Source of the DNA: Candidatus Pacebacteria bacterium CG_4_9_14_0_2_um_filter_40_15
GTDB lineage: Bacteria; Patescibacteriota; Microgenomatia; UBA1400; PJMF01
Assembly: GCA_002788675.1 (NCBI GenBank)
Contig: PFRS01000001.1
Location: 234,706-298,705, forward strand
Length of the DNA: 64,000 bases
Direction: 5' to 3'
Shown here: piece by piece, positions 35,981 through 63,885 of the stretch
How the letters are laid out: the number at the start of each line of letters is the position of its first letter
Numbering within the stretch: the stretch's first letter is position 1
Program-made: the position numbers and the translations under genes
Notes under the pieces: model-generated
Seen by the model: the letters and a program-made list of their open reading frames with translations, nothing else
Told to the model about the DNA's origin: nothing
Database searches by the model: none

Positions 35981-36265
35981 GTTTCTTCTAACTATTCTAA
36001 TATATATATCTTGTAGTTGTAGTAGTAGGTGATTTTAGATTCGTGCATAACCTCTATTTTAGATCTGGTAGCCATCTGTGAATTGCGTGTGGATTTCAGT
36101 CAAGGGCAATTGTGAATAACTTTTCTGTAAAAACGTTGAAAATTGGGAAAACTTTTCCAAAGTTATTCACATGGTACCATTTTGTTAACAACTATTCACG
36201 CAGTATCCACTTGCTTTTCCACTAAGTTTTCCACATCCGTGGATAAGTTTGTTTATGTCAAAACT
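35981..36265. promoter_or_regulatory. Candidate oriC segment: DnaA-box cluster plus AT-rich unwinding-like tract in dnaA-dnaN spacer
   Basis: At least 8 DnaA-box-like 9-mers (7-8 of 9 matches to TTATCCACA): gtggataag, tgtggattt, tgtgaataa, ttattcaca, ttttccaca, agtatccac, tgtgaattg, tattcacgc. Plus a taatatatatatc tract. Confidence 0.5.
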
Positions 36266-37894: not shown

Positions 37895-38039
37895 GATATC
37901 TCGTATCTAAAACGTAGGTAATACTAATTTGGGGCAGGCTAGTGAATGATACATTTTGTTCATTCAAAACTACCTTGTTATACAAAAAGTTTTCCACATT
38001 GTGCAAGGGGCGAAATAGATTGTTGTATAGGAAAACTGA

Positions 38040-42932: not shown

Positions 42933-43565
42933 TTAGCGAGGAAAAGCCTCTGGCTGAGTTGCTTCTGTGCTTAATTGACGCCCCCAGTTGAGCATAAAGG
43001 TTTCTGTGTCGGTTGGTTCAAAATGCCAAGTTTGATTAATAACTTTATTTGAGATGTTGGCAACAATTACTAAGCCTTCATCTAAAAATACGTGTGCTTT
43101 AACATTTTCATTCACTTGAGGTGCGAATAATTCAAAGTCGGGCTCACCATAGAGAGTGATGTAGTTTGAAAGTGTATTGTTTTCATCGAACTTTGCTGGA
43201 ATCTGAATAAATTCGACAATTCCTTCTTTATTTACGAGTATCTCATTATGATAGGCTGCAAAATGTTCAGAGGAATAGGTAATATGTTGTTTTTCAGCTG
43301 GTAGATTCTCAACTTCGAGAGGTTTTCCTAACTCTTCGAGCAGTTTTGGAGTCAGTTTAAATCCAGGAGTTAGGCCTTGCCATGTGTTTTCTTGAACGGG
43401 AGGTTCTTCAATGGGAATAAACTGTTGAACTGCTGATGCGATTACCAGCAACACTGCCAAGACAGCTAAAAAGATGAAAATAATTTTTGTATATTTATTT
43501 TTTTTTGGTTGCTTTGATTGCTCGTACGCTTGATTCTGGTATTTGTGGGCATTTTGTTGTTGCAT
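42933..43565 (-). CDS. Membrane-anchored hypothetical protein (translationally coupled, TAATG overlap)
   Basis: ATG at 43565 overlaps the TAA of the upstream giant gene; TM IIFIFLAVLAVLLVIASAV; 210 aa. Confidence 0.4.
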   Translation of the reverse strand: MQQQNAHKYQNQAYEQSKQPKKNKYTKIIFIFLAVLAVLLVIASAVQQFIPIEEPPVQENTWQGLTPGFKLTPKLLEELGKPLEVENLPAEKQHITYSSEHFAAYHNEILVNKEGIVEFIQIPAKFDENNTLSNYITLYGEPDFELFAPQVNENVKAHVFLDEGLVIVANISNKVINQTWHFEPTDTETFMLNWGRQLSTEATQPEAFPR

Positions 43566-47370: not shown

Positions 47371-49287
47371 TTATTTGGAGAAAGAGGCAATTTGTGATTT
47401 AAATTCATTTTGGTTTGCTTGAAAGACGGTAATAATTTTTTTTGCCGTTTTTTCTGGTTCTAACACAAACTCTGAAAGATTTACTTTTTTTGAAAGATAT
47501 AAAAGTATTGGGTGAGCTAATATTCTCACAGAATCGAAGAACTCATTGAAGAGAAGATCGCTCACATCCACAGATTTCTTTAATGATTCTTTTAATAGAA
47601 ATAATACATAGTCAAAGCTTTTCATGTCCTCATTATTTGAGACACCTTTTTTAAAGGCACTTTCAAGAACAGAAAAACTTTGTTCAGGATTATTGAGCAA
47701 ATCATTTTTAAGATTTTGACGTAATGCCTCTAGCTGAGCATGTTCGGATTTTGTTAAAACCAGATCATCATTTCCGCGAGAGTCACCTCTCAGGGCCCAA
47801 CCACAAGGTCCAATGGGTATGCCGTCTTCAGATAACTGGAGAGAATTTGATTTAAAGAAATCAGAGTATTCCTTGTGGTGTTCTGCTTTAATGAACCAAG
47901 TTTCTCCATTAGATAAGCGAAGTGGTAAATACTGCAATGTGTTTAGATAGTGTAATGCCTCAATTTTTTCTTTTGGTCCTAGGCTTGTTAGCATGCCTGG
48001 AATTGTTGGAATTGGTATTCCTGGAATAGCAGAAAGTATTTGTTCTGACATCATTCTAGTTGGAATAAATGTGCCTATGCCACATTGTCCAAGGCTTAAG
48101 CCTTTTGAAGTTGTTGAGAGAAGCATATTAGAAAGTGAATTATGCTCATCCACTAGATCAGATTGAATTTTTTGACCATGTAGTTTTCTTACATTTAAAT
48201 CATATATTTTGAGTAATCCATTTTTAACTTTATCTTGAGTAAGGTCTTGAATTTGCAGATCTGATGTATTATTGCTTTTCATTAACTTCAAGTAGTTTGT
48301 TTTGTTTGTGTTATTTGTATCACTCCCTTCTACCCACTTTATGAGTGGTTGATAGGCGAGAATGCCAAAAGCAATATCCAACTGCTTAATGAGCTGAGCG
48401 TATTCTTTTGACTGAACAAAATTCATCCAAAGTGGGTCAGTATGACTTTCAACTTCGGGTACTTTTGATAGTAATAGTGGAATAACTTTGCTAATATACA
48501 GGCTTAATAAAAAGTCCCTAAATTGAGCATATTTTTGTTCATCAATTTGTGGCATTTCGTGTGGTTTAACCTTCCAGGAATCAGATGACGAATAGGCTTT
48601 TTTTTCTAGTAATGAAACACATTCAAGTGTGGTGGAACAGTTTAAGTCTTTGGGTGAAACGATTTGTGTGTTATTAATTATTTTATGCGAGTCTATTCGT
48701 GAAGAGTTATCAAAACCTTCGTTTTGGGTAATGAACTTTTGAAAATCCAAATGATCTTGAAGGCTCATCCATGTTCTGTACTGATGAAGTACTACTGTGG
48801 TAGGTGAAGTCTTTTCATATACAAAAATAAATGAATGTGAATTAAGTCCAGCATATCCCTCTGAGACTAGCCCAGGAGGACTGTTCCAAACAAATAACTG
48901 GCCGACCGGTGCGGTAGAAGACCACAAGTCAAGTTTAATCATGTTGTTGGTTTCAATTTGGGCTCGACTTGGTGATTTTTTTTGATTGATGAGTTTATCT
49001 TCAAAATGTTCACCCATACCAAGAATACCTGCGGTGTAAGAACTCATCATTCCAAGAAGTCCATTCTGTTGATCGACGTCCATCTGAAAAGCAGAAATTA
49101 CTTCACCTCTAGTATATTCAGCGGCAAACGAAATGAAATTAGCTGTTAACAGTGTTGAAAGTGCATCAAAATCACGATATTCAGATAAAGCCGCGATGCG
49201 CACATACGCTGCGGCATCCCATTGATCAAACTGACTAACAACAGCTTCTTTCTGATTTATAGGGTTGCGTGATTCTTTTTGTAACAA
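47371..49287 (-). CDS. Hypothetical protein (638 aa), first gene of the T4SS-like operon
   Basis: No recognisable motif; TTG start at 49287 overlaps the U-tract of the leader hairpin; true start uncertain. Confidence 0.4.
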   Translation of the reverse strand: MLQKESRNPINQKEAVVSQFDQWDAAAYVRIAALSEYRDFDALSTLLTANFISFAAEYTRGEVISAFQMDVDQQNGLLGMMSSYTAGILGMGEHFEDKLINQKKSPSRAQIETNNMIKLDLWSSTAPVGQLFVWNSPPGLVSEGYAGLNSHSFIFVYEKTSPTTVVLHQYRTWMSLQDHLDFQKFITQNEGFDNSSRIDSHKIINNTQIVSPKDLNCSTTLECVSLLEKKAYSSSDSWKVKPHEMPQIDEQKYAQFRDFLLSLYISKVIPLLLSKVPEVESHTDPLWMNFVQSKEYAQLIKQLDIAFGILAYQPLIKWVEGSDTNNTNKTNYLKLMKSNNTSDLQIQDLTQDKVKNGLLKIYDLNVRKLHGQKIQSDLVDEHNSLSNMLLSTTSKGLSLGQCGIGTFIPTRMMSEQILSAIPGIPIPTIPGMLTSLGPKEKIEALHYLNTLQYLPLRLSNGETWFIKAEHHKEYSDFFKSNSLQLSEDGIPIGPCGWALRGDSRGNDDLVLTKSEHAQLEALRQNLKNDLLNNPEQSFSVLESAFKKGVSNNEDMKSFDYVLFLLKESLKKSVDVSDLLFNEFFDSVRILAHPILLYLSKKVNLSEFVLEPEKTAKKIITVFQANQNEFKSQIASFSK

Positions 49288-49589: not shown

Positions 49590-52500
49590 ATGAGTATGGG
49601 TAGATCAGAGTCAATATCAACACCACTATCTGAACAGTACAAGGCGTTAGTTGTTGATCTTGTTAATGCTATTAAGGCTAAGGATTTTGTTTCAGCTGCT
49701 AACAAAATGTCTGATATTCAGATGGTCATTTCGTATGAGATAGCCACTACAGATTATTCGAATCTAGATAATGAACGTAAATACCCAGGCCTTGCAGATT
49801 TTAATTATTTTTTTGGTGATATTGAAACAGATTGGCAAGAGATTCCCTATTTAGCAGCCCAGATTTCAGATGTGGAACCCGCTGCAGCAGTTGTAGCGGA
49901 TGATGTTGAGCCGGTAGCCTCCAAACCTGTTGCAGCTGAAGCTCCCGTAGCCCCAGAAAATAAAGAAAAAACATGGATTCAAGAATATGAAGAGAAGAGA
50001 ATAGCGTTGGCTCGACTAACGTATGCAACTCAAAAAGCTTCTGATGCAAGCTTTGCTCAAAACTTTGATTTCTTTAATGAGCTTTTAGCTGCAGATGAAG
50101 AGACGGATATTCAAGAGCTTATTGATTCAAATAAAATTGATCCGGTTGATCATTCGATTGTTGAAAAAATTAACGAACTTGTTGCGGAAATAAACCTTAG
50201 GATTCAAACTGAGTCTCTTGGAGATGAAAAAGAAAAATATGATGTTCAAAGAGAGCTAGTAGGACAATTAAAAGAATCTGTTAGATCATTTGAACCAGTA
50301 CTGGTTGCTAACAAACTATTTACTGATGTTGTCTCCTCTTATAGTTCAATACTTGTCGTAAGATCAACGTTTGACCCAGGATCCTATGATTCAATAGATC
50401 TGTTTGAAGCAGAACTAAAAACAACAACAAAAAAACTTGCTGGCATAACATCAAAGATTGATGCTTTAGATTCGATTTCAACACAACTTGATCAAAAAGA
50501 GAGAGTTAATTTTTTGCGAGAAGTTGTCTCACGAGTTTCTCGAATAATTTCAAATGGAGAAAATGAAGTTGAAACCTCTCGCAAACTCTTACAAGATGCT
50601 GAGTATATTGACTTTGTTGCAGAAGTTGATAAGAAAACAGAACTTTCCAGTCTTACTTCTGAAGTTGCTCGTCCACCAGCAGATGTCACTACGTCTGATA
50701 TAGATATTGATCGAAGAATTGACAGGTTGAAGCAAAAACTTGCTGAGTTTAAGGCCGCTATACAAGCAGACCCTTCGTTTAGTGATGCTGCAAAAGAACA
50801 GTATTTAAGAACTGATTTTAATGGTTTTGAAAAATCTGTGACAGAAAAAGCAGCATTACTTCAATTCCAAATGGATTCTAATACCACTTATAGAAAGTTG
50901 CTTGATTTAACTACAAAAGTTGCGGCAGGTGTTTCTGAAGATGAGCTGGAAAAAATTCGAGTAGAGGCAGAAAGCTACAATGGTCAAATAACAGAGTTAG
51001 AATCACGCAAAGATGCTCAACTTACTACGTACGTTGATACCCTTACTAAGGTCTATTATGATCTGTTAAAAGTCACAAAATCTAAGATTGAATCTGAAAG
51101 AAAGACGTCAGTCTTTAAAAAGCTTGAAGAAAGATTAGAAAAAGCCACTCAAACAGCAACATACGTTGTTGATTCTCATCACGATGAAGTATGGGAGACA
51201 TATGAATCTATACAACAAGCCTATGAGTCGTTTGCAGAATCATACGGAAGCAATGAAGAATTCGAAAAGAAACTTAAAATTGAATTTTATAAAATTTATC
51301 GAAGATCCATGCTTGCTGCACTTGATGAAATTGAAAGAGAAGAGCAGCCGTCCCCAGCATGGAAATCAATATTTCAAGATAAAATACTTGGAAAATCACA
51401 AAATCTTGTTCAGGATATTGTTGGAATTAGTCTGGGTAGCTTAGATGATTTTACTGAGGCAGTAAAAACTAAAGGGACTGCTGGTGCAGTTACGGTAGAT
51501 ACTCGAACCTTAACACTGCATGAGCAAAATTTAATTGAAGATTTTAATAAACTCAGAACAGAGTACGTGTCAAGAAAGTTTTTACATCTCAGCTGGACTG
51601 CAAATAGAGTTGGTGTTCTTGGTAGAGGTGAAGGAACAAGAACCTTTCCAAACTTAAATATAGATGAAAATTGGCCAATTGGTGTCGTACTTAACTACCT
51701 AATGAAGGATGGACTTCGAAGTAGTGAAGTAGGAGATGGTCAAATCTTAAGTGAAATTACCAATCCGATTATGGAAATTCAAAGGGTCGATCACCCACTT
51801 GGATTCTCGACAGATGCGGACGGAAATTTAGTTGCAACAGAAGGTGATGTTGCTCTATACGATGCTTCGAAAAGAGGTACAACCAAGCATGACGTTGCAC
51901 TTTTTGAAGATGTCTTCCTGGCGATGGATGATTGGGTTGCCGGCACTATTAAAGCAAGAAGAGGCACGGGAGATGTTCATAATGATGTTGATGGTGTAGC
52001 TGAAGACATCATGCTGTTCTTACAAAAAAAATATCCAGATAGAAAAGATGAAATAACAAAAGGAGATGTAAGAAGAGCTGTTAGATCATATCTTATCGTT
52101 ACGTATCATCAGTCGGTGAGATCGCACCGCAGTGCGATTTTATCAGATAAAATGATGTATCAGTGTTCATTTTACCTGTACAGTGAAAAGTATTCTGAGG
52201 ATGGTACTGCTGGATGGAATCCGAATTTTGTTAAGGCCATGTATGCCTATCCGTATCCTGCAGGATCTGATCTGAGCAGGGTAGATCCAATGTATGTGAC
52301 TAAGGGAAATTATGTGAATACGATTCCTGTGATTCTCGGAGAACATCCTGATATTGATGCTGAAAAACATTGGATATTTAGGGTTCTTGAAGGTAAGCCT
52401 TTTACTCAAATGGAGAATGCTTTGCGCGATGAAGGCTTTTTGGTCGACATGCAAACAGCATTTAATCATTCTGATGGAAGACCTAAAACCTTTGCTGAAC

Positions 52501-53372
52501 TAGATCCTAAAATTCAAGCTCGATTGGAAGAAGATCACTTTGTTGGCTATAATTTCTTACTTCGACCACTTATTAGAATGGCTGATACAACTCAAACTGC
52601 TCGGACAAAAGATGTTATTTTGGACACTCCAGATCCTGTAACGGGCAAACATTACAGAAGAGAAACTGTTCCAGATGAAAAAGATGCTGGTGAAATGTAT
52701 ACTCAAATGCCACCGATGGCAACAGTTTTTCTAAAGGATAAAAATGGAAATATTATTAGATATCGTGAAAAAGATGGTAGAAAAACCAGAGCAGTATCTC
52801 TCTTTGACCTCAGAAATGAAAATGACCAGATTATGTATGGTCTGATTGATTGGGACAAATATAGTATTGATTTAGCTTCAGAAGTAACTGGTTTGCATAA
52901 AAATGGTGCAAATTTCTTGGACAATTTCTTAAAGACTAAAGACGTTCTTAAATCATTAGAAGATCCAGCAAAGGTTTCAGAATTATTAAATGACGCAAAA
53001 TATGTATTGCGTCACTTACCGGATCTTGGACAGTATATTGCTGCAGGAATTCACGCAACAGATGAAGTAAAAGCCCAAGGATATGATAGTCCATATTACA
53101 TGTTAGACAAAGGATTTATGAGAACAATCATTGCTCAAATGGTCTTTCATGGTTGTTTAGCTCGAATGCTAAGTGATGAAAAACCCTGGAGAATGGCTGA
53201 TGTGCAATCATATTTAATTAAACTCTTAAGACCTGAAAGTAATGCTATATCTGTTGAAACAGCTGAAGCAATATATATCTCTCTCAATGCCGCACTCGGT
53301 CGCAAAGCTATGGTTAAAGCTGTGGTTGATCAGGCTAGAGTACAATTCAGAGAGAGATTTAAACACTCTTAG
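49590..53372 (+). CDS. Giant (1260 aa) soluble hypothetical protein, divergent from the T4SS-like operon
   Basis: No signal peptide, TM or catalytic motif recognised; coiled-coil-rich N-terminal half; TATAAT directly abuts the first ATG (possible leaderless start; second ATG at 49596). Confidence 0.5.
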   Translation: MSMGRSESISTPLSEQYKALVVDLVNAIKAKDFVSAANKMSDIQMVISYEIATTDYSNLDNERKYPGLADFNYFFGDIETDWQEIPYLAAQISDVEPAAAVVADDVEPVASKPVAAEAPVAPENKEKTWIQEYEEKRIALARLTYATQKASDASFAQNFDFFNELLAADEETDIQELIDSNKIDPVDHSIVEKINELVAEINLRIQTESLGDEKEKYDVQRELVGQLKESVRSFEPVLVANKLFTDVVSSYSSILVVRSTFDPGSYDSIDLFEAELKTTTKKLAGITSKIDALDSISTQLDQKERVNFLREVVSRVSRIISNGENEVETSRKLLQDAEYIDFVAEVDKKTELSSLTSEVARPPADVTTSDIDIDRRIDRLKQKLAEFKAAIQADPSFSDAAKEQYLRTDFNGFEKSVTEKAALLQFQMDSNTTYRKLLDLTTKVAAGVSEDELEKIRVEAESYNGQITELESRKDAQLTTYVDTLTKVYYDLLKVTKSKIESERKTSVFKKLEERLEKATQTATYVVDSHHDEVWETYESIQQAYESFAESYGSNEEFEKKLKIEFYKIYRRSMLAALDEIEREEQPSPAWKSIFQDKILGKSQNLVQDIVGISLGSLDDFTEAVKTKGTAGAVTVDTRTLTLHEQNLIEDFNKLRTEYVSRKFLHLSWTANRVGVLGRGEGTRTFPNLNIDENWPIGVVLNYLMKDGLRSSEVGDGQILSEITNPIMEIQRVDHPLGFSTDADGNLVATEGDVALYDASKRGTTKHDVALFEDVFLAMDDWVAGTIKARRGTGDVHNDVDGVAEDIMLFLQKKYPDRKDEITKGDVRRAVRSYLIVTYHQSVRSHRSAILSDKMMYQCSFYLYSEKYSEDGTAGWNPNFVKAMYAYPYPAGSDLSRVDPMYVTKGNYVNTIPVILGEHPDIDAEKHWIFRVLEGKPFTQMENALRDEGFLVDMQTAFNHSDGRPKTFAELDPKIQARLEEDHFVGYNFLLRPLIRMADTTQTARTKDVILDTPDPVTGKHYRRETVPDEKDAGEMYTQMPPMATVFLKDKNGNIIRYREKDGRKTRAVSLFDLRNENDQIMYGLIDWDKYSIDLASEVTGLHKNGANFLDNFLKTKDVLKSLEDPAKVSELLNDAKYVLRHLPDLGQYIAAGIHATDEVKAQGYDSPYYMLDKGFMRTIIAQMVFHGCLARMLSDEKPWRMADVQSYLIKLLRPESNAISVETAEAIYISLNAALGRKAMVKAVVDQARVQFRERFKHS

Positions 53373-53650: not shown

Positions 53651-55429
53651 TTAACTACCTGCTCTATCTTCATTTGAATTTGCTCCGCCAGCTGGTACTG
53701 CACCTGTTGAGCTTGTCTCAGCACCTCTATTACTTGGAGCCTGAACTCCACCTCTACCAGACAAGCCAGCATTTCGTAATGCCATATCATTAAGTACACG
53801 TTTTGCAATTTGGCCTGATTTACTTTCATTTCTTTCAAGTCTTCTTTGGGCTTGTCCAATTGACTCACCAACTAGGAATTGACCAGCTTCTTGTTTAGCT
53901 GCGTTGTAGGTAGATCTTATAAGTGGTTTAGCAACTTTTATACCAGTAGGAACAGCTGCACCAATTGCTGCGCCTCTCCCCGCACCTTTCCAGAAGCTAC
54001 CACCTTTACTCTTAGCTCTTACACCACCAATTGCTGCTCCAGCAGCACTTGATCCTGCTGATGCACCTAGGAAGGCACCACCCTTCATGATATTTTTAGC
54101 TCCGACGCCCTTATATCCTTCCCATCCTTTTTTAGCTCTATCCGTAGCCCAACCAGCAACCTTAGTTCCAAAGCCTTCTTTAGCGCCGACTTTTTCTTTT
54201 ATTTCTTTCACAATTTCAGGCATGGCCAAAATAAGTGCCAGCCCCATTAAAGATGAAATTGCTCCTGCTTGTCCACGACCAAGTAAGAAAGGAGGCATAA
54301 AGCCGCCACTTGTAGCGTTACCTAAGTCAGTAAATTGGTTGTAGAGAATAACTATAAAAAGAACTGTTGGGAATGCCGCTAAGTTTCCTGCGACATTGCG
54401 TAGCCAAGGTACGAAGGCATTATTACCTGGAATGGCACCCATCATGAGTGTAATTGGCGAGATAACAGTTGCAATAACCACGTTTGCGTAACTCTTAAGG
54501 AGTTCAAAGAAAAGTTTAAAAGTACCAAATATAACGGCGACGGTCAAAATTAAGGTGAGCGTCATGCCTCCAACAAATCCAAACGCAGTAGTCAGTCCAT
54601 TGTCGGCACTGACTAGGTTTGAGAGCATATTAGTAATGAGGTCAACATTCTGGTTAAATGATCCAGCAACGTTTCCAAACAAAAGTCCTCCAATTTGGAG
54701 AATATTAAAGTCGATTACATTAGCATCAGCCAGGCGTGTATCAAAGATACCAATCATTAGGAACATAAGCAGATACATTAAATCAATCATGAATCCAGCA
54801 ATAGCATACGAAAAGGTAACAAAGAGCAGCGACACAATTATACTTGGGATAGCTTGTTGTGCGGTTACGTCTGCACCATTCACTTTATTCCGGAACATAA
54901 TCATAAAACCAATAATCATGAATACAAACACAAAGAATAAGTAGGCCATATTTCGGAATGTTTTCCAGAGAGAAAGAATTGGATCAAGAGCAGCAAAGCC
55001 AAGTCCTTGAGCATACGCTGGAGTAGCAATGTGTGCGCTCTTCATAACGTCGGCAACATAGGTTCCTGTGCTTGCTGGAGGGTTTGCATACATCTGGCCG
55101 ATTAAGTAGACGAAGCCGCTTGAAACCATGTTTGGTTGTGGGACACTCGAACCAGGTCCGGTTCCGGTTCCACCAGCAGATGGAGGAGTACTTTGGGCTG
55201 GCGCATTTGCAATTTCAAATTGAATATATTTATAAACATGATGCACCAAACACTCCAAAGAAGGAGTGCCGCAGTCTTGGATAGCTTCATTATATGAATC
55301 TTTTAAGGCTGATTCGTAGGCAGGACTAAAAGGACTTTCGCCTTGAGCTTGCACGCTAGCAGGGTTCCCAAAACCAATAAGGAATACAAACGCAACTGCT
55401 AGTAGTGCGGTGAGGGCTCGTTTGAGCAT
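53651..55429 (-). CDS. TrbL/VirB6-like polytopic T4SS membrane protein with Gly/Ala/Ser-rich C-terminal tail
   Basis: Signal peptide (AVAFVFLIGFGNPASVQAQ); 6-7 TM helices in the central region; C-terminal about 200 aa of GAxxGA low complexity, typical of TrbL/VirB6 family members. Confidence 0.55.
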   Translation of the reverse strand: MLKRALTALLAVAFVFLIGFGNPASVQAQGESPFSPAYESALKDSYNEAIQDCGTPSLECLVHHVYKYIQFEIANAPAQSTPPSAGGTGTGPGSSVPQPNMVSSGFVYLIGQMYANPPASTGTYVADVMKSAHIATPAYAQGLGFAALDPILSLWKTFRNMAYLFFVFVFMIIGFMIMFRNKVNGADVTAQQAIPSIIVSLLFVTFSYAIAGFMIDLMYLLMFLMIGIFDTRLADANVIDFNILQIGGLLFGNVAGSFNQNVDLITNMLSNLVSADNGLTTAFGFVGGMTLTLILTVAVIFGTFKLFFELLKSYANVVIATVISPITLMMGAIPGNNAFVPWLRNVAGNLAAFPTVLFIVILYNQFTDLGNATSGGFMPPFLLGRGQAGAISSLMGLALILAMPEIVKEIKEKVGAKEGFGTKVAGWATDRAKKGWEGYKGVGAKNIMKGGAFLGASAGSSAAGAAIGGVRAKSKGGSFWKGAGRGAAIGAAVPTGIKVAKPLIRSTYNAAKQEAGQFLVGESIGQAQRRLERNESKSGQIAKRVLNDMALRNAGLSGRGGVQAPSNRGAETSSTGAVPAGGANSNEDRAGS

Positions 55430-55654: not shown

Positions 55655-56617
55655 ATGTTAGATCAGGCTCAGTTAAATACAATTCGATCCTATTTTGAAC
55701 AGGCCCATACAGTTACCATCGTTTGCGGGGTAGAACCCAGCATTGATGTTTTGGCCGCAGTTTCCGTTTTAAACCAAGCCCTTGCTTCTCAAGGAAAAGA
55801 AATTCAGTTAGTCAGTCCAAATACTATAGATTCTCCCGTTGTTTCAGGACTGGGTGGGGTAGAAGACTCAATTGGTAATCAGAACTTGGTTGTAAGTTTT
55901 CCCTATGATGAAACAGCTGTCGACAAGGTGAGTTATCATATTGGTGAAGATTCAGGTCAGTTTTTTCTTACCATAAAGCCAAAAAAAGGTCATGATCCTT
56001 TAGATTCTAATCAAGTTGAGTTCACCTATGCAGGAGTTGAAAGTGATTTGCTTGTACTGGTTGGTGTGACAAACTTCGATGAACTCAACCAGCTCTACGT
56101 TGGATATGAAGAGTTCTTTGAGAAAACTCCAAAAATTTCATTTACTGCTAATGGTTCTAAACTCGGAAACGTAAATATTTCATCTACAGGCTATTCGTCG
56201 ATTAGTGAATGCTTATTGGTTCTCTTAAACAGCTTACAAATCGATTTTTCAGTTGATAGTGCGACTAATTTGTTCTCGGCAATCGATGTGGAAACTGATT
56301 ACATGCGCTCACTAAAGGCAAGCGCTATTACTTTTGAAGCTGTGGCTCAACTCATGAGACTCGGTGCTCGCAGAGTAAGGCCTGAAAAACTACAAAAGCA
56401 AGATGTTGGGCAGAAAGTTTCGACTCGTCCTCTACAAGAAACAGAAATAGCAATTTCAAGTTCAAAATCACAAAAGAAACAAGATTCTCTAACTGAACAA
56501 CAAAATCAATCTAAGAAGATGAAACTGAAAAAACACAAACAGTCTCTTCCTAAAGATACAAGAAACCAACCTGGTGGTCTTAAGTATGATCCATCTAATG
56601 GTATTTCACGAAACTAA
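55655..56617 (+). CDS. DHH/NrnA-like fold protein with degenerate catalytic motifs
   Basis: Layout resembles NrnA-type DHH phosphoesterases (VTIVCGVEPSIDVLAAVSVLNQAL; LVLVGVTNFDEL), but the canonical DHH and GGGH motifs were not seen. Confidence 0.3.
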   Translation: MLDQAQLNTIRSYFEQAHTVTIVCGVEPSIDVLAAVSVLNQALASQGKEIQLVSPNTIDSPVVSGLGGVEDSIGNQNLVVSFPYDETAVDKVSYHIGEDSGQFFLTIKPKKGHDPLDSNQVEFTYAGVESDLLVLVGVTNFDELNQLYVGYEEFFEKTPKISFTANGSKLGNVNISSTGYSSISECLLVLLNSLQIDFSVDSATNLFSAIDVETDYMRSLKASAITFEAVAQLMRLGARRVRPEKLQKQDVGQKVSTRPLQETEIAISSSKSQKKQDSLTEQQNQSKKMKLKKHKQSLPKDTRNQPGGLKYDPSNGISRN

Positions 56618-56672
56618 CTAGTCACTCTTTTTTCACAAAATTGTATGTCGAGTAGTTGCATCCGCAACATGG

Positions 56673-59600
56673 TTATTTGATCTCACAAGTAGCAGTTCTC
56701 CATGGTGCCCAATTGCCCCATGCTTTTCTGAGATCGACCATAGCACGAATATTATTATCAGCCTTGATTTTTTCTTGCTCAGCAGTATCTTGTTCAACGG
56801 GAGTTGCTCCTGGAGGTAAATGTGAGTTGATGCGGGGTTGTGCAAATGAACCAATGGCAACTTTGGAGAGAGCACACTCATTAAGTCGTTCTTGGTCAAC
56901 AATGGTACAGGGCAGTTTGTAGGGATCATAGGTTGGGGCCGTATCGGGAATGCCACTACCATCTTTAAAAGCTCCTGGACAGCGAGGGAGCATATTTATC
57001 TGGAACAGACCAAGACTATAGTCAACAGATTTTCCTTCAAGACACCTATCATTGAACGCGTACGGACTGCTTCCGCTTTCTCTTTGACAAATAAGCGATG
57101 CTTTAAGTGCCTCGGTCGATGCATTTTCAAAACCAGCTTCAACAAAAAATGGTTCAAGATACTCAGGTGCACAGTACCCAGTGCCTAGTTTTTTAAGGCC
57201 ACAGGTCTCAAAATCTAAACTGCCATCAGCACCATCGTCGATATTTTTGAGGGCACCACCTGAACATTGCCCAAGTAAGAAGTGTTCCAAAGTTGGACAG
57301 GAGTCAATGTAACTGTGCGTGGCCGCTGTTGTAACTATAAACTCCTTGGTAACTGTATCTTTTGTTCCGACATAGACAGAGTTTAAAGAAAGTTGCACTT
57401 GTCGGAGCCAAAATCCAAGTTTTGCTCCGAGGAAACCAATACCTTTGTTGTCAGTTTCGATGGCAATTGAGACGTGTTCATTACAGACTTTAGGAATTGG
57501 TGAGGCTAACGGATCGTCTGGATCAATTGTTGTACCACAGTCCTTATCTGGATCAGGGAAATCAAATGATGCTGTGCCTCCAGCAACACCCATCAGGGCT
57601 CCTTCAATAGGGAAGCCATCTAGGATGCGCCCGCTTTGAGCTATCTGGTCCTTTTGGATGGAAGTGAAGAATGTGTTCATCATTACATTTTCAATTTCTT
57701 CGAGTTCAAAACCCATAGGGTAGACGAGGTAGTAGTCTGCAGTTGTTTTGCTCTCAGCTGGTGACCAAGTATCTGGACCGATTGTCCAGATGGTTTTAAT
57801 TTTTTCATACCAGGGATCAGCTGTTTTTGCTTTTTGTGGATCCATGTAGTTGTCATCGACAACATGGGTTCGATCGGCGTATTGACCAGAACCAAATAAA
57901 TTGAGTAGTAGTGTATTGCCCCACTCATTTAAGTACACTTTTCCATAGGGATCTTTAGGATCTCCTAGCCCTGCATAGTCATTTATTTGTACTACTGGTT
58001 CAGTTTCCTTGGTGTCACAGCCATAGGCCGCTCCGTTTACAATGTCGACAACTGCTTTACCGAGTTCATTCTGACAGGCTGGCGTTCCAACTCCATCTGG
58101 ATAGGATCCTTCATAACAGTAAATTTTGCTGCCTTCATTTTGAGATACAGCTGCTTCTGCTTGCAGTTGTATCTGACGGCGTCTTGCTGGACGATCAACG
58201 TCTTCGAGTTCTCGTATTTGATCACGTCTTAAAAGTATATTTCGAGTTAAATATGATGGATCATTCCAGTAGACACTACCAGAATCATCACCGCCACCTT
58301 TATTTGTAGCAATATCTGGAATTTTAAAGCCAATTACGAGTACCTCGTTTCGGGGCGCTCCCTTTTCAGTTTTACCTGTGAAGAAATTGAAGATTTTTCC
58401 AGCAAATTTGCCGCTTTTTTCTGGCTGTTTCATGTTGAGTGAGATAACCAAGAAGGCTAACCGATATGAGCGATTAATTTCCAGTGGCACATTTTGAAGA
58501 TCTTGTTTGAATTCAACAATATCTGGTGTTTGCTCAGTTTCTGGTGAGTAGAGACGTCTGCATTCTGCACTAATGCCTCCATCTCGATATGTCGGCATGA
58601 GTTCATGCATATCACCACGAACAGCATCTATAATCTTTCCAGTTCCTGGAACTTTTTGGGCAAGAAGGGTACATTCACCAGGATTAATGAGTTTTTCACA
58701 CATTAATTCAGTTGCTAAGAGCACTCTTGCAGATTGCACACAACGTTGTTGTTGACTAAGAAGAGAGTTTATTGGGGCTGAGTTAATTTCAGAGTAGCTA
58801 GGATCTTGGGTGTATACGTCTTTAAATCCAAAGTATTCCTCGAGAGAGCTCATAAGGTATTTAGTTCCTTCTGTGTCTCTCCAGATAGGTATTGTGGCAT
58901 TTGTCATGTCCCCCGATGCGACTGAATCAACAGCTATGTTAACCACAGGATAGGCTCCGGGATTTGATTTGTGAAGTTCAAGGTAGCGGGCAATAAGACC
59001 TGAAGTGTTGTATTTTGGTTTAATTTCAATATTCTCAGCAGCACAGTAGGCTTCATATCCGGAACTGGTTAGATCTTTTCTAATTTTATCAACGTCTCTC
59101 TCACCAGTGAGCATTCCTGAAATTGGTTGAAGATAGAACTGGTCTTGGTTTATGTTGTATTCAGGAAAGTCGCTTAAGTCGTAGCCGCCACTTCCACTGC
59201 CAGCCGTGATTGTGGAACAGCTTGTATCAACTTTTGTACCACCCCAGGTGAAGAGTTCACCCTCGACGTACACGAGCCACTCCCCTTCGCTTTGTAATTC
59301 TGCACAGACATTTCGAACAAGTGGCGTAATTTGCGCTGCGTTCATGCTGCCGGCTTTACTTGAAATAAATTCAAGAACTTTATTCAGATCTGTATCTGGA
59401 GGATCGTCACCACCCGGTGAAAGGGAAAACTCTGTAATATAAAGTTGTGAGCCGCCGGTACCTTGCACACCAACACTTTGTGTATCAGTTGAACCAGGAT
59501 CGCAGTCTTTACTGGTGCCACCGATACATCCATAGGAGTTTGCAGTTCTAATTTTTGCAGCTGAATAGGCACCGCCTAGACCAGACGTATCTAAAAAGAG

Positions 59601-60137
59601 CTGTGCTTTATATGCTGGGTCTCCCATGTACCAGTCAAGTGCCGATGGAGCTATATTTCCTAATCCTTTAACAGAATTATAGTTTGAAGCATAGCGTAAC
59701 CAGTCGGTACAACCAACATTATCGGAACTCCCATTATTGACTTCATTTCCGTAGGCAATGATGACATCATCACCAAAAGCTGCCTTAACTCTGTTGACCA
59801 TGGCAATCGCATCATCTGAAGCAACGGTACACGAATAGTTAATACGGACAATAGGGAAGAGCCCATTGTTTTTTGCGGCTTCAGCAAGATTATTGAGTGT
59901 ACCTTGATCTAGTCCCATGTCAGCCATAATGGTGACGGGAAAACCTGGCCGGTTACCGATAACGCCATTCATGACACTTATTTGAGTTCCAGGATCACCT
60001 GCACCAAGATGTGTGCCAATAGCAGCCTGTGCTCTAGCAGGCACAAGAAGGAAGAGTGTGAATAAAAGAAGACTGGAAAGTAATTTTTTGAGTGATCTCA
60101 CAGGCCTTATTATACCGTTAATTACGCTATTGAACAA
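56673..60137 (-). CDS. Giant (1154 aa) secreted protein with C-terminal VirB1/SLT-like lytic transglycosylase motif
   Basis: Signal peptide LLLFTLFLLVPARAQA. C-terminal CQRESGSSPYAFN...SLGLFQINM matches the SLT catalytic Glu-Ser and GLMQ(I/V) motifs. The N-terminal 950 aa is of unknown fold. Confidence 0.55.
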   Translation of the reverse strand: MFNSVINGIIRPVRSLKKLLSSLLLFTLFLLVPARAQAAIGTHLGAGDPGTQISVMNGVIGNRPGFPVTIMADMGLDQGTLNNLAEAAKNNGLFPIVRINYSCTVASDDAIAMVNRVKAAFGDDVIIAYGNEVNNGSSDNVGCTDWLRYASNYNSVKGLGNIAPSALDWYMGDPAYKAQLFLDTSGLGGAYSAAKIRTANSYGCIGGTSKDCDPGSTDTQSVGVQGTGGSQLYITEFSLSPGGDDPPDTDLNKVLEFISSKAGSMNAAQITPLVRNVCAELQSEGEWLVYVEGELFTWGGTKVDTSCSTITAGSGSGGYDLSDFPEYNINQDQFYLQPISGMLTGERDVDKIRKDLTSSGYEAYCAAENIEIKPKYNTSGLIARYLELHKSNPGAYPVVNIAVDSVASGDMTNATIPIWRDTEGTKYLMSSLEEYFGFKDVYTQDPSYSEINSAPINSLLSQQQRCVQSARVLLATELMCEKLINPGECTLLAQKVPGTGKIIDAVRGDMHELMPTYRDGGISAECRRLYSPETEQTPDIVEFKQDLQNVPLEINRSYRLAFLVISLNMKQPEKSGKFAGKIFNFFTGKTEKGAPRNEVLVIGFKIPDIATNKGGGDDSGSVYWNDPSYLTRNILLRRDQIRELEDVDRPARRRQIQLQAEAAVSQNEGSKIYCYEGSYPDGVGTPACQNELGKAVVDIVNGAAYGCDTKETEPVVQINDYAGLGDPKDPYGKVYLNEWGNTLLLNLFGSGQYADRTHVVDDNYMDPQKAKTADPWYEKIKTIWTIGPDTWSPAESKTTADYYLVYPMGFELEEIENVMMNTFFTSIQKDQIAQSGRILDGFPIEGALMGVAGGTASFDFPDPDKDCGTTIDPDDPLASPIPKVCNEHVSIAIETDNKGIGFLGAKLGFWLRQVQLSLNSVYVGTKDTVTKEFIVTTAATHSYIDSCPTLEHFLLGQCSGGALKNIDDGADGSLDFETCGLKKLGTGYCAPEYLEPFFVEAGFENASTEALKASLICQRESGSSPYAFNDRCLEGKSVDYSLGLFQINMLPRCPGAFKDGSGIPDTAPTYDPYKLPCTIVDQERLNECALSKVAIGSFAQPRINSHLPPGATPVEQDTAEQEKIKADNNIRAMVDLRKAWGNWAPWRTATCEIK

Positions 60138-60173: not shown

Positions 60174-60608
60174 TTATAAACCTGAATCAGAAGATGGAAT
60201 TCTGAACTGTGTGATGAGACTAATTCCGGTGAAAGAAGCAATCAAGTTAAGGATAATAAATGCACTCAGGGCTACCACCATACCAATAACAGCATAAGTC
60301 ATTGAACCTTTAGCAGATTGGAGTTTTCCAGTGTCTCCTCCAGAAAGCATCCAAGTGATTGCTCCAACGACAAACATTACAAATCCAGCGAGTCCTATGA
60401 TTGTAATAATTACTGTAAAAACATTTGCAATTAAGCACTCAAGACCTTGTAGTGTAGCTACATCCTGTTGACCTTCAGCTGAACCAACACAGACGCCGCT
60501 CCAGGCACGAGTTTGTGCTTGTGCAGGAGTAGCAGCCAAAAAATATACAGCTAGCATTGTAGCGGAGACATTTAGTTGTCGAATGATTTTTTTTATTGCT
60601 GGTTTCAT
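60174..60608 (-). CDS. VirB2/TrbC-like two-helix mini-protein (candidate T4SS pilin), paralog 1
   Basis: Signal peptide (AATPAQAQT); helix 1; loop WMLSGGDTGKLQSAKGSM; helix 2. Confidence 0.5.
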   Translation of the reverse strand: MKPAIKKIIRQLNVSATMLAVYFLAATPAQAQTRAWSGVCVGSAEGQQDVATLQGLECLIANVFTVIITIIGLAGFVMFVVGAITWMLSGGDTGKLQSAKGSMTYAVIGMVVALSAFIILNLIASFTGISLITQFRIPSSDSGL

Positions 60609-60655
60609 AGTAAAACTCTGTAGTTTTTATGTATGGTTACAGTATAGCAAACCTA

Positions 60656-61198
60656 CTAAGATAATGTTTTGGTGTTTTCAAGGACTTCTTGTAATGACTC
60701 AAATCCAAGAAAGTTCAAACCTAAAGTAAGAATAGCAAAACTTGAAGCTAAAATAATCAAGCCAATTATTGCTGCTATCAGACGTTGTCGTGCAGAATCA
60801 ACTTTGCCTTTATCTCCACCAGATGTGATCCAATAAAAGCCAGCGAGGATAAGTTGAAGAAAGACTAATAATGCTCCAAGAAGCATTACTAAACTTAAAA
60901 TCGCGTTAAAAAGAGTACCTACATTCGTTGCAAATCCTGTTGGAATGGTAATCCGAACATCTTTAAGAAGGTCATGTTTTATTTGGGCAGAAGTAGTACT
61001 GATTTTTTGAGCAGAGTTGGTCGCCGTTGTTGTTAAGTAGAGCGTTTCCCCGTCACGGTGTGTGGTAACGTCGTTACCTGTACCAGCAGCAAGAACAGCT
61101 CTGGGTTGGCAGAAGAAAAAAACAGTCATGAGTAAGAGTATAAAAAGTAATGTTTTTTTCATAACTAGTATTATAGTATCTATATCAAAATATATCAA
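60656..61198 (-). CDS. VirB2/TrbC-like mini-protein, paralog 2
   Basis: Signal peptide; loop YWITSGGDKGKVDSARQRLIAAIIGLIIL between two hydrophobic helices. Confidence 0.5.
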   Translation of the reverse strand: MIYFDIDTIILVMKKTLLFILLLMTVFFFCQPRAVLAAGTGNDVTTHRDGETLYLTTTATNSAQKISTTSAQIKHDLLKDVRITIPTGFATNVGTLFNAILSLVMLLGALLVFLQLILAGFYWITSGGDKGKVDSARQRLIAAIIGLIILASSFAILTLGLNFLGFESLQEVLENTKTLS

Positions 61199-61242
61199 AC
61201 ACGCTTGGCGTGTTTTTTAGCTTAAAGAAGCTAACGGCTGTA

Positions 61243-61272
61243 CCAAAAGCGCCAGGCAATTTGCCTGGCGCT
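61243..61272 (-). terminator. Intrinsic terminator after paralog 3 (same stem sequence as the 3484 terminator)
   Basis: aagcgccaggc-aattt-gcctggcgctt; on minus strand followed by TTTTGG. A second hairpin, aacacgc-ttgg-gcgtgtt plus T6, lies at 61218-61243. Confidence 0.5.
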
Positions 61273-61292
61273 TTCTAGTTTCTATTTTTAGA

Positions 61293-61700
61293 TTAGTTAC
61301 TAATTGATTTAACGTTACTGAATGCATCTCCAAGGTTTTCGAAGCCGATGAAGTTAAGAGCAATCAAGAGAATTGCGTATGATGCAGCGAGAACGATAAG
61401 TCCAAGAACAGCTGCAGTAATTTTGTTACGAGCAGATTCGGTCTTGCCTTTGTCTCCACCAGAAGTAATCCATTCGATGCCACCCCAGATGAGGTACATG
61501 AATACTAAAAGTGCTGCGAGAACCATGACGAATGAAAGCACACCATTGATAAGTCCACCAATGCTGGTTGCAAATCCTGGTCCTGGAGTAATTTCTTCTC
61601 CAGTATCAATACCTTGGGCAAGTACTGGTGAAACAGTAGCCAAGTATGCTGTTCCTGTTGCTACGGCTGTAGCGAACGATTTTTTGAGTGAGTCTGTCAT
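61293..61700 (-). CDS. VirB2/TrbC-like mini-protein, paralog 3 (terminator-flanked, candidate major subunit)
   Basis: Signal peptide (VSPVLAQG); loop EWITSGGDKGKTESARNKITAAVLGLIVL; followed by tandem terminator hairpins. Confidence 0.5.
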   Translation of the reverse strand: MTDSLKKSFATAVATGTAYLATVSPVLAQGIDTGEEITPGPGFATSIGGLINGVLSFVMVLAALLVFMYLIWGGIEWITSGGDKGKTESARNKITAAVLGLIVLAASYAILLIALNFIGFENLGDAFSNVKSISN

Positions 61701-61790
61701 GTGTCTCCTTATTTTTTTTACGGTTACAAACTTATATGTAATTATACCTATGTTCCAGACTAATAGTCAAGCATGGTTATCGAGGCGTCT

Positions 61791-62366
61791 TTAGCACTTA
61801 CTAAAGTCGTACCCTGAAATCTGATACTGAGCGCCATCTTGACAGAAGCATGGATCATAGTGGTTATAACTTAGGTGACTATCTGAGCCAAAGCATTGAA
61901 CCATTGCGATTCCTTGAGAACAATATCCAGCAGAACCACCAGCACTTACGGTTTGTTCCGTTACGGTGCAAGAAGCTTGGCCACCACCACCTCCAGCTCC
62001 ACCACCACCATTTGCAGTAGGTGATCCTAAAAAGGTAAACACTTGAATTCCTAAGAATTGTTGCACAATCATAAAGAGGGCAGTTACAGCTGAAAGAACA
62101 ATTATACCTGTGACTGCACCGGTAATTCTCTGGCGAGCTTTTTCAAGCTTGCTTTTGTCCCCTGCAGATGTGATCCATTCGATGCCACCCCAAATGAGGT
62201 AAAAGAAGACCAGTAGAGCAGCAATAAGCATGATGAAAGACATGATGCTTCCTACGAGTGGGCCAAAACCTGAAGCATGATTTGCTGGATCTAAAGAAGC
62301 TGTTCCTGGGACTGCATTGTCAACAGCTTTTTGTGCAAAATCGAGTTGTACTTGTGCGAGTTTCAT
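61791..62366 (-). CDS. VirB2/TrbC-like mini-protein, paralog 4 with Gly-rich/Cys C-terminal extension
   Basis: Loop EWITSAGDKSKLEKARQRITGAVTGIIVL; C-terminus GGGGAGGGGGQASC followed by a Cys-containing tail. Confidence 0.5.
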   Translation of the reverse strand: MKLAQVQLDFAQKAVDNAVPGTASLDPANHASGFGPLVGSIMSFIMLIAALLVFFYLIWGGIEWITSAGDKSKLEKARQRITGAVTGIIVLSAVTALFMIVQQFLGIQVFTFLGSPTANGGGGAGGGGGQASCTVTEQTVSAGGSAGYCSQGIAMVQCFGSDSHLSYNHYDPCFCQDGAQYQISGYDFSKC

Positions 62367-62386
62367 ATGTTCTTTCCAAGTGTGAT

Positions 62387-62854
62387 TTAGTGTCCTGCTC
62401 CTGGCCAGCCACCATCTGGTGCGCCGGTGCTATTTGGTGTTGGGAACGAGAGATTCAAGATTGAGAAGCTTTCACCAAAGAGCGCGGTACTTATGTAGCC
62501 AAGAATAACGAAACTTGAAACAAGGATGAGTAAACCAACAACAGCATGCATCATTCTGAGGCGGGCTTTCTCTAGTTTGCCTGAATCGCCACCTGCTGTA
62601 ATCCACTCAATAGAACCCCAAATAAAGTAGAAAAGAACGAGTAGACCACCAATATTTATGGCTGTTTCCCAGAGAGAAACCATGTAGCCGACAAAAATTG
62701 AGCCATCAGTGGCAGTTTCTGATGATTCTTGTGTTCCTCCTAAATCAGGAGTAAGGACAGGGTTGTTAATTGAGGCAAGAGCTTTTGTTGGTGAAAATGC
62801 AAACAGTGATACTGTCAGTACTAGAACGAAAAGGTAGATTAATTTCTTTTTCAT
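62387..62854 (-). CDS. VirB2/TrbC-like mini-protein, paralog 5
   Basis: Signal peptide (PTKALAS); loop EWITAGGDSGKLEKARLRMMHAVVGLLIL. Confidence 0.5.
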   Translation of the reverse strand: MKKKLIYLFVLVLTVSLFAFSPTKALASINNPVLTPDLGGTQESSETATDGSIFVGYMVSLWETAINIGGLLVLFYFIWGSIEWITAGGDSGKLEKARLRMMHAVVGLLILVSSFVILGYISTALFGESFSILNLSFPTPNSTGAPDGGWPGAGH

Positions 62855-62858
62855 AGTG

Positions 62859-63227
62859 TTATGGTGCCGGTGCTAAATCTATTAACTTTGATGCTGGTTC
62901 AAGAAGATTGAAGCCGATGATTGAGCCAATAAGTCCAATTATTCCATATGCTGCGACAACAATAACAAGACCAAGTACTCCGTGGAGCATGCGCTCACGA
63001 GCAGTTTGCAATTTTCCACTGTCACCACCACTCGTTACCCAAGAGAGTGCTGCAATAAGGAAATAGACTATAAAGAAGATAGATGCAAAAACAGTTAACA
63101 CACCAATGGAATTAGAAATAAACAACTCTAAATTTGATAGCGCACCTTCATTTGTTTCGATGCCTTCAGTAAAGGGAGCGTCTTGAGTGTTGAAGCCTCC
63201 TCCAAATTGTGCGATGAGTGTTAACAT
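62859..63227 (-). CDS. VirB2/TrbC-like mini-protein, paralog 6
   Basis: Loop SWVTSGGDSGKLQTARERMLHGVLGLVIVV; 4-nt gap to the next gene. Confidence 0.5.
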   Translation of the reverse strand: MLTLIAQFGGGFNTQDAPFTEGIETNEGALSNLELFISNSIGVLTVFASIFFIVYFLIAALSWVTSGGDSGKLQTARERMLHGVLGLVIVVAAYGIIGLIGSIIGFNLLEPASKLIDLAPAP

Positions 63228-63285
63228 AGTTCTATTATATCCTATTTGTATTTTTTTTGTACTCTATTTCTTCAAGAATGGTTTA

Positions 63286-63885
63286 CTATTCTGGAAGTGC
63301 TCCGCCAAGTGCTGGATTTAGCACAGCAGCAGAACTGCCATAGAAAATGACTCCAACAATTGCGGCAATTAAGTAGAACGAAGCAATTATGGCTAAGCCA
63401 ACAAGTCCCCATGTGATTTTATCTTTAACTTTTTCGTGTGCACTTGGGTTTCCAGCAGAGGTAACATACGTAAATCCTGCAAGAACAAAGTTAAACATAA
63501 CTATGATGCCGCCAATAACGGAAGCTAAGTTTATGATATTTGAAGCAAACTTAAAGAGGCCAATTTCACCTCCAGCTTCATCATTGTATTCAGCGACTCC
63601 TTGAGGAGGTTCAACTTCACCGATAATAGCTGAGCCACAGGGAGATGGAGATAAAAAACAAATACTTGAGCTTATACATAGGCAGCTTTTGTTGTCGACA
63701 CATTGTCCTGTATAGTTGCAAGACTGAGCTTGCACTTTTGGCGGAGTAAAAAAGAAAGCAGCTGCAAAAAACAGCCCCAAAAAAATTGAAAAAAATGTAT
63801 GTGAAAGTTTTGAATGACGTACAGACATATTATGGTGTTCCTGGTCCAGTAATAGTCGGGTTGAGTAAGTATAAGGAATTTCCAA
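63286..63885 (-). CDS. VirB2/TrbC-like mini-protein, paralog 7 (Cys-rich N-terminal region)
   Basis: Probable true start at the ATG at 63828 (MSVRHSKLSHTFFSIFLGLFFAAAFFFTPPKVQAQ signal peptide); loop TYVTSAGNPSAHEKVKDKITWGLVGLAII. Confidence 0.45.
   Translation of the reverse strand: MEIPYTYSTRLLLDQEHHNMSVRHSKLSHTFFSIFLGLFFAAAFFFTPPKVQAQSCNYTGQCVDNKSCLCISSSICFLSPSPCGSAIIGEVEPPQGVAEYNDEAGGEIGLFKFASNIINLASVIGGIIVMFNFVLAGFTYVTSAGNPSAHEKVKDKITWGLVGLAIIASFYLIAAIVGVIFYGSSAAVLNPALGGALPE

Follow-up and report, generated by a model that had tools for sequence, protein, structure and literature searches.

The window analysed here is a stretch of 64,000 nucleotides (64 kb) from contig PFRS01000001.1 of Candidatus Pacebacteria bacterium CG_4_9_14_0_2_um_filter_40_15 (assembly GCA_002788675.1, positions 234,706 to 298,705). 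The gene under study occupies positions 56673..60137 of its minus strand, beside an array of pilin genes of a type IV secretion system (T4SS). Its product is a Sec-exported, soluble protein of three modules: a barrel of glycoside hydrolase (GH) clan GH-A, a conserved core and a lysozyme-fold end. The gene and the adjoining array are laid out as follows; residue numbers are those of the 1154-amino-acid (aa) open reading frame (ORF) throughout.

60174..63885, minus strand: seven T4SS_pilin (VirB2-like) genes, Pfam PF18895 matching seven of seven ORFs, six of them above cut-off
56673..60137, minus strand: whole ORF, uninterrupted, maximally 1154 aa from a TTG codon, stop codon at 56673-56675
60024..60101, minus strand: probable start and Sec signal peptide (residues 13-38), predicted cleavage after AQA, with the start of the relative P0001 at the same place
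59202..60023, minus strand: clan GH-A (beta/alpha)8 glycoside hydrolase domain (residues ~39-312), from Foldseek and the structure model
59742..59747, minus strand: Asn131-Glu132, predicted acid/base, motif GNEVNN, just after beta-strand 4 (126-129)
59430..59432, minus strand: Glu236, predicted nucleophile, motif YITEFS, in beta-strand 7 (231-239)
57252..59165, minus strand: conserved core (residues ~325-962, ~640 aa), fold not among the known ones
56676..57173, minus strand: lysozyme-fold domain (Pfam SLT_3, PF18896; residues ~989-1154)
57078..57080, minus strand: Glu1020, predicted catalytic acid, invariant in 20 of 20 tails and aligned with lysozyme Glu35
57021..57023, minus strand: Asp1039, motif VDYS.GLFQIN, invariant in 20 of 20 tails, at the position of lysozyme Asp52 and EtgA Asp60

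The plus-strand reading of 56673-60137 was rejected as non-coding, its translation being riddled with stops, and short overlapping ORFs within the gene (e.g. 56633-56962) were regarded as spurious. P0001, an NCBI protein from a Candidatus Pacebacteria metagenome-assembled genome (MAG), has 1142 aa, shows 100% identity by BLAST and begins with the GTG at 60101 (P and L numbers are the labels used in this analysis for the proteins and loci of relatives). Because P0001 starts there and AAGG lies 4 nt upstream of this GTG, translation from 60101, giving a predicted protein of 1142 aa, is more likely than the 1154-aa form. The N-terminus is that of a typical Sec signal, with an R/K-rich start followed by LLSSLLLFTLFLLV and then by PARAQA, cleaved before AIG; the full signal region reads MRSLKKLLSSLLLFTLFLLVPARAQA, again with AIG after the cleavage site. 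The signal peptide noticed in a preliminary description of this DNA is therefore real. It is the sole hydrophobic segment of the protein (cleavage motif AQA before A), and hydrophobicity over the full sequence revealed no membrane anchor beyond it; an LPXTG motif, looked for in the 1154-aa protein, was absent. The protein has 26 Cys residues, many of them conserved, in line with an extracellular location. Its reported richness in Gly, Asp and Thr amounts to mild enrichment (G 9.4%, D 7.0%, T 6.3%). The full-length structure model is confident (predicted local distance difference test, pLDDT, 87.5), being low only at residues 1-11, 311-317, 922-935 and 962-978.

The C-terminal domain was confirmed as a lysozyme-superfamily fold with a conserved Glu, belonging to Pfam family SLT_3 (PF18896, 'lysozyme like domain'; gathering cut-off 27 bits). 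The isolated C-terminal 177 aa pass this cut-off (30.3 bits, E 5.7e-7), the score with the whole 1154-aa protein is 23.8 bits and lies below it, and 20 of the 41 family members match the profile (best E 8.7e-13). Of the motif strings quoted at the outset, CQRESGSSPYAFN is found at residue 1017 and VDYSLGLFQIN at 1038. In the 20 orthologous tails that could be aligned, E1020, S1021, N1029, C1032, D1039, Y1040, S1041, G1043, L1044, Q1046 and N1048 are invariant, so that the catalytic Glu, on whose conservation in orthologues the preliminary description had staked its assignment, is kept in 20 of 20. The domain thus combines the feature expected of the SLT family, a lysozyme-like fold with a single catalytic Glu that stands at the end of a helix and is followed by Ser, with that expected of lysozymes, a Glu35/Asp52-type pair in a lysozyme fold.

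The nearest solved relatives of the domain are c-type lysozyme and the lysozyme/lytic transglycosylase hybrid EtgA. When a profile of the 20 tails was run against the PDB, the sole meaningful match was human c-type lysozyme (E 0.041), with Glu35 and Asp53 aligned to E1020 and D1039. Using hhalign, the tails were aligned over the catalytic segment with 90.8% probability (E 1.2e-6) to a set of six c-type lysozymes plus alpha-lactalbumin, the sequences of which were entered by hand. In the hidden Markov model (HMM) alignment with human lysozyme, three Cys residues align with C65, C81 and C95, and C1017 and C1151 are like lysozyme C30 and C116, as judged by eye only. The c-type lysozyme profile Lys (PF00062) did not match the target, and it gave 17.6 bits, under the 27 cut-off, with the SLT_3 relative P0216. 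Since no animal c-type lysozyme stood among the 120 matches listed of 196 in a profile search with the SLT_3 domain, membership of GH22 is not claimed. EtgA has been described as a muramidase/lytic transglycosylase hybrid, since it has an Asp corresponding to D52 of lysozyme; what this residue does in EtgA and in hen egg-white lysozyme has been set out as well, and the chemistry of EtgA itself is still debated (PMC10880428). The invariant Asp1039 at the lysozyme D52 position argues for lysozyme/EtgA-like chemistry. As judged from the sequence, the Glu and Asp pair looks more like that of lysozyme or EtgA than that of a pure lytic transglycosylase, and the reaction could be either hydrolysis (muramidase) or lytic transglycosylation. 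A literature search turned up no paper naming PF18896.

The preliminary description had left about 950 aa before this domain as a region of unknown fold that might contain a further glycoside hydrolase-like or adhesin domain. The unknown part has shrunk to the ~640 aa at 325-962, and the guess of an extra glycoside hydrolase proved right for residues ~39-312. Compared with the PDB by Foldseek, these residues gave as top matches exclusively triosephosphate isomerase (TIM) barrels of clan GH-A, from GH79, GH5, GH26 and GH1 (E 1.5e-4 to 7e-4, probability 1.00, best target-normalised TM-score 0.56), the best of all being a GH79 beta-glucuronidase at 1.5e-4. The model of the barrel has eight alternating strand/helix units with pLDDT mostly >90. 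N131-E132 and E236 do not vary in a 14-sequence alignment of the domain, and across 41 sequences their conservation is at least 90%. The model and these motifs identify residues 39-312 as a TIM barrel of clan GH-A that retains both catalytic glutamates, and glycosidase activity is predicted. No Pfam GH profile matched the target barrel, and a profile of the barrel domain found only chance-level matches among PDB sequences; hence the domain is a very divergent member of GH-A. Among relatives, Cellulase (PF00150) matches two and Glyco_hydro_cc (PF11790) matches P0138 above cut-off, so that relatives fall in different GH families and no single family is indicated for the target.

The core is the most conserved part of the protein, better conserved than the enzyme domains, and its invariant residues include G360, Y361, R420, S431, E433 and several Cys. 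No relative of residues ~325-962 was found among solved structures, and a whole-family profile gave only chance-level matches to PDB sequences (a tail fibre assembly protein, PRD1-type capsid proteins and designed proteins). A core HMM of 615 positions matches 199 of 199 sequences at hand, near-completely in almost all, which makes the core the defining part of the family.

A word-indexed search recovered 72 relatives of 1075-1495 aa, all from MAGs of Microgenomates of the candidate phyla radiation (CPR; Pacebacteria and Woesebacteria). At thresholds of E<=1e-3 and E<=1e-30, an exhaustive profile search covering 1.84 billion cluster representatives yielded 494 and 190 clusters, respectively. 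A GH-A head is found in 162 sequences; 23 others lack it and have a signal peptide alone. Many of the MAG records among L003-L053 are titled 'Pseudomonadales bacterium', 'Limisphaerales' or 'Methylococcaceae' despite the CPR-specific locus, and look mislabelled.

The C-terminal module is swapped between close relatives. The cores of P0014 and P0073 are 91% identical and their tails are different. Head and core of the window protein are 79% and 73% identical to those of P0006, but the tails only 26%; in P0007, P0008 and P0009, by contrast, the tails are ~70% identical to that of the window protein and the cores 41-48%. Tails were assigned to types by motif, namely SLT_3 (45 members), 'WGEESGFS' (30), 'EIEGS...GP(L/M)Q' (21), 'xTESGG' (17) and 'GPYLVIDV...VDVD' (6), with 69 unclassified. 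The motif of the 'WGEESGFS' and 'xTESGG' tails (helix ... A-G-V-S-P-x-x-A-L-A-M-W-G-E-E-S-G-F) resembles SLT motif I by eye only; these tails had no PDB match, their hhalign comparison with SLT_3 was insignificant, and Pfam Glucosaminidase reached only E 0.09. The 'GPYLVIDVAA...WIVDVD' tails may resemble RlpA/3D double-psi beta-barrels (DPBB), but Pfam gave no match. The distant, long-tailed relatives P0138 and P0126 match the classical SLT profile (PF01464) in the tail, P0138 above and P0126 below cut-off. The tail of P0141 (1959 aa, locus L054 6260-12139) carries an Exo_endo_phos (EEP nuclease/phosphatase) domain (E 2e-18) and has no lysozyme-type Pfam match, and that of P0042 (locus L055 8001-11231) is a T4SS_pilin domain (E 1.9e-8). 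Just upstream of P0042, only one Pfam-recognised pilin gene was seen, along with a 366-aa gene without Pfam match. In L030, L031, L032, L035 and L039, ORFs of 4.2-4.7 kb (about 1400-1560 aa) have long extra tails without Pfam match.

The domain is also joined to pilins elsewhere in CPR bacteria. A profile search with the SLT_3 tails found 196 proteins and, among the matches listed, all those with a named taxon come from CPR lineages. Many are proteins of 270-330 aa of Parcubacteria/Paceibacteria type, in which Pfam recognises, behind a signal peptide, a T4SS_pilin domain, a Gly-rich linker and SLT_3 (e.g. P0282, P0272, P0277 and P0265). The two fusion sequences that were read, P0282 and P0277, are without the Asp of the VDYS motif. 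Such fusions speak independently, as 'Rosetta stone' evidence, for a function of the lysozyme-like domain at the pilus.

In the window, the pilin array that the preliminary description had seen beside the gene does lie directly upstream on the same strand. The gap between the target and the nearest pilin gene is 36-70 nt and the target is last in the co-directional run; array and target probably form one operon. For synteny, the ORFs of 53 related loci were searched with the proteins of the window. Pilin ORFs precede the gene in 51 of the 53, the other two ending at a contig edge; as the loci were recovered via this protein family, 51/53 is not the fraction of all pilin arrays that have the gene. 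A 320-aa gene follows on the opposite strand in 46 of the 46 loci that reach far enough, and a 592-aa membrane gene is next in line in almost all loci reaching that far. This order is kept across genomes whose cores are just ~25-45% identical, and the EEP-tailed (P0141) and pilin-tailed (P0042) members have the same gene context. Further genes of the window that bear on the T4SS or on the wall are given below.

55655..56617, plus strand: convergent 320-aa gene without signal peptide, conserved in position
53651..55429, minus strand: 592-aa polytopic membrane protein, candidate VirB6/TrbL analogue
49590-53372, plus strand: 1260-aa protein, see below
47371-49287, minus strand: 638-aa protein, see below
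43565-47308, minus strand: 1247-aa protein with a Gly/Ala-rich membrane region and a C-terminal HETGHM (zincin-like) motif
41639-42832, minus strand: PrgI/VirB3-like gene (PrgI match)
40049-41599, minus strand: 516-aa gene between VirB4 and PrgI, function not assigned
38040-40034, minus strand: VirB4 ATPase (P-loop_TraG and CagE_TrbE_VirB matches)
22212-24026, plus strand: VanW and PG_binding_4 gene, ordinary peptidoglycan-related
9585-12017, plus strand: VirD4-like coupling protein (TrwB_AAD_bind, TraG-D_C), ~26 kb from VirB4 and outside the pilin/VirB4 region
4868-6013, minus strand: LysM and Peptidase_M23 gene, ordinary peptidoglycan-related

Beside VirB4 the T4SS region abuts dnaN/dnaA (window 34871-40034), and this neighbourhood of T4SS region, dnaN/dnaA and VirB4 has been reported for Patescibacteria (PMC12102498). 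The 320-aa protein has no Pfam match and weak similarity to DHH/DHHA1 phosphodiesterases (phmmer against the PDB: 5o1u, E 0.046), and could be a DHH-family member that has degenerated and is associated with the T4SS module. The 592-aa protein has a weak NCBIfam match (E 0.029) to Mbov_0396, a membrane protein of a mycoplasma integrative and conjugative element. The C-terminal half of the 516-aa protein is extremely Pro/Thr/Ala-rich low-complexity sequence, and a weak PHROG terminase match (E 5e-4) is probably spurious. Neither Pfam nor the PDB gave a match to the 1247-aa protein. At corresponding positions, L001 (19882-23525) and L055 (17703-19231) have Peptidase_M23, with a weak NAGPA match also in L001, and only the L001 gene matched the 1247-aa protein (phmmer E 6e-11); thus, the T4SS region may hold a separate peptidoglycan endopeptidase. 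The 638-aa and 1260-aa proteins, to which matches occur in a few related loci (L002, L003, L006, L011 and L012), gave no match in Pfam or PHROGs. No tRNA was found in the 64-kb window by ARAGORN. The LysM/Peptidase_M23 and VanW/PG_binding_4 genes make it very probable that the organism has its own peptidoglycan wall.

Taken together, the protein is best read as a secreted three-module glycan-cleaving enzyme dedicated to the T4SS/pilus, a functional counterpart of VirB1, EtgA or PrgK, with a probability of roughly 0.62. After export, the core would dock the protein to the growing pilus or to the T4SS channel, and the C-terminal domain would then cut the MurNAc-GlcNAc backbone of peptidoglycan locally. 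The GH-A barrel would remove a second, beta-linked polysaccharide layer, which may be a wall polymer, a surface-layer (S-layer) glycan or a capsule. Both enzymes would in this way open a passage for the pilus through the cell's own wall, the wall of the host cell, or both. The frequent exchange of cassettes, together with the EEP alternative, makes us lean toward a host-facing or otherwise variable target.

Several points weigh against this reading. The preliminary description had placed a VirB1-like SLT domain at the C-terminus; the lysozyme-superfamily domain stands, as SLT_3, whereas the SLT profile PF01464 had no match at E<=0.1 in the whole protein or at E<=1 in the isolated domain, and none of the VirB1-type models of NCBIfam matches the protein. 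In the core, no fold known for docking or binding could be recognised. As regards the tails, 69 of ~190 (about one third) fall in no class, and the 'WGEESG' class has neither profile nor PDB support for a lysozyme fold. The PrgK/TcpG-type build suggested at first was not borne out, as the target is without the membrane anchor, CHAP or LytM partners of Gram-positive T4SS hydrolases; a check for CHAP, NlpC/P60 and LytM domains gave no Pfam match at E<=0.1 in the target and none among 41 relatives. Because these parts are absent, attachment to the machine is pure inference. To our knowledge, clan GH-A (CAZy) includes no peptidoglycan-cleaving family, and we know of no cultured Microgenomates organism. 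Functional statements throughout draw on sequence, predicted structure and gene order.

The same evidence was weighed under three other explanations. In the first, the protein would be a free predatory or scavenging glycanase that diffuses away from the cell and digests both wall and exopolysaccharide of the host, the sugars or amino sugars set free feeding an auxotrophic epibiont; it would play no mechanical part in T4SS or pilus, and the gene linkage would reflect nothing but co-regulation at host contact. A cleavable signal peptide without an anchor and two independent glycosidase modules suit such an enzyme, and the swapping of tail cassettes among close relatives, one of them EEP, looks like adaptation to variable prey. 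However, the synteny with the pilin array is near-universal over ~50 genomes, the pilin fusions (P0042, and SLT_3 in other lineages) argue for physical coupling to the pilus, and a free glycanase would hardly account for a non-enzymatic core of 640 aa whose conservation exceeds that of the enzymes. We regard the free glycanase as unlikely.

In the second, the protein would be an adhesin at the pilus tip or cell surface standing in for VirB5 or PrgB, its enzyme-like domains binding host glycans, its core attaching to the pilus, and cleavage being secondary or absent. This would suit the pilin domain at the end of P0042 and the size, Cys-richness (26 Cys) and extracellular location of the protein, and no VirB5 or PrgB-type adhesin has been detected in Patescibacterial T4SS loci (PMC12102498). 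An adhesin role is nonetheless rather improbable. A housekeeping autolysin for growth or division, lying near T4SS genes by chance in a compact genome, is very improbable: lysozyme-fold autolysins are common and the window does have ordinary peptidoglycan-related genes elsewhere (LysM/M23 and VanW/PG_binding_4), but the gene order is conserved across genomes with cores ~25-45% identical, pilin fusions exist, and cassette swapping would be unusual for such an enzyme.

A bolder extension of the preferred reading, a dedicated T4SS enzyme, is offered tentatively and is more doubtful than that reading itself. The family could be a new class of 'wall-breaching' effectors borne on the T4SS pilus of CPR epibionts, in which a new fold of ~640 aa couples to the VirB2-like pilus and functionally replaces VirB5-type tip proteins. 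The GH-A domain and the C-terminal cassette (candidate lysozyme-type, possibly DPBB-like, or EEP) would be exchangeable warheads, recombined to match host envelopes, and the pilus would be an enzymatic drill and not a conjugation organelle.

Published work bears on the preferred reading. For a cultured Saccharibacterium, a T4SS with pilins has been found essential for epibiotic growth (PMC10633639). The T4SS to which the protein belongs is of the monoderm type and related to MPF-FATA (PMC12102498). Most Patescibacterial T4SS loci have no VirB1 homologue or none linked to them; a 2025 survey held that pilus biogenesis may not need VirB1, with other glycosidases suggested as substitutes (PMC12102498). 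For Microgenomates, the present locus suggests otherwise. It provides a concrete candidate for the wall-opening step, probably the wall-cutting enzyme of this T4SS. It also brings to light a family that comprises ~500 sequence clusters and has a conserved 640-aa module with an unfamiliar fold, and raises the idea that enzymatic ends are exchanged to match host envelopes.

The exchange of tails recalls polymorphic toxins, which likewise have a conserved N-terminal and central body with exchangeable C-terminal cassettes. Here, however, no cassette-specific immunity gene lies downstream, the same 320-aa gene being present whatever the tail type, which argues against a classical toxin/immunity system; moreover, the cassettes of polymorphic toxins are cytotoxic, whereas most of those found here are wall glycosidases.

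At the level of single domains, the barrel shares with the retaining hydrolases of clan GH-A (GH5, GH26, GH79 and GH128-type) the fold, the Asn-Glu after strand 4 and the Glu in strand 7, and differs from them in escaping all Pfam GH profiles and PDB sequence profiles. With c-type lysozyme and alpha-lactalbumin (GH22), the C-terminal domain has in common the Glu/Asp spacing and the motif D-Y-x-G-(I/L)-(F/L)-Q-I-N, and AWVAWRNRC of c-type lysozyme resembles, by eye, its C-terminal W-x-x-W-...-C; it differs in its ~16% identity and extra insertions, and in being bacterial, not animal, and part of a giant protein. The pilin-SLT_3 fusions share the pattern Cys-x-x-Glu-Ser ... G-L-F-Q-I-N ... W-x-x-W-...-Cys and the tie to T4SS pilins. 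In contrast to them, the domain here is unfused to a pilin and ends a protein of ~1150 aa with a GH-A barrel and a 640-aa core, and the subfamily of giant proteins keeps the invariant Asp (VDYS) that P0282 and P0277 are without.

Among the wall enzymes of secretion systems, VirB1 of T4SS and EtgA, IpgF and IagB of type III secretion systems are single-domain proteins of ~150-250 aa, whereas the target has two further large modules; the rod protein EscI localises EtgA, and the target has no known counterpart of it. PrgK (pCF10), TraG (pIP501) and TcpG (pCW3) are, like the target, multi-domain and T4SS-encoded; in Gram-positive T4SS hydrolases the active glycosidase is a muramidase or SLT domain, and such enzymes can be muramidases instead of SLTs (PMC12857230). 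PrgK, TraG and TcpG have an N-terminal transmembrane anchor, which the target is without, and a peptidase as the partner domain, where the target has a GH-A glycosidase and a large novel core. The protein is thus best placed among the secretion-system-associated peptidoglycan glycosidases, a known kind, within which its architecture is unusual and a large part of it has an unfamiliar fold.

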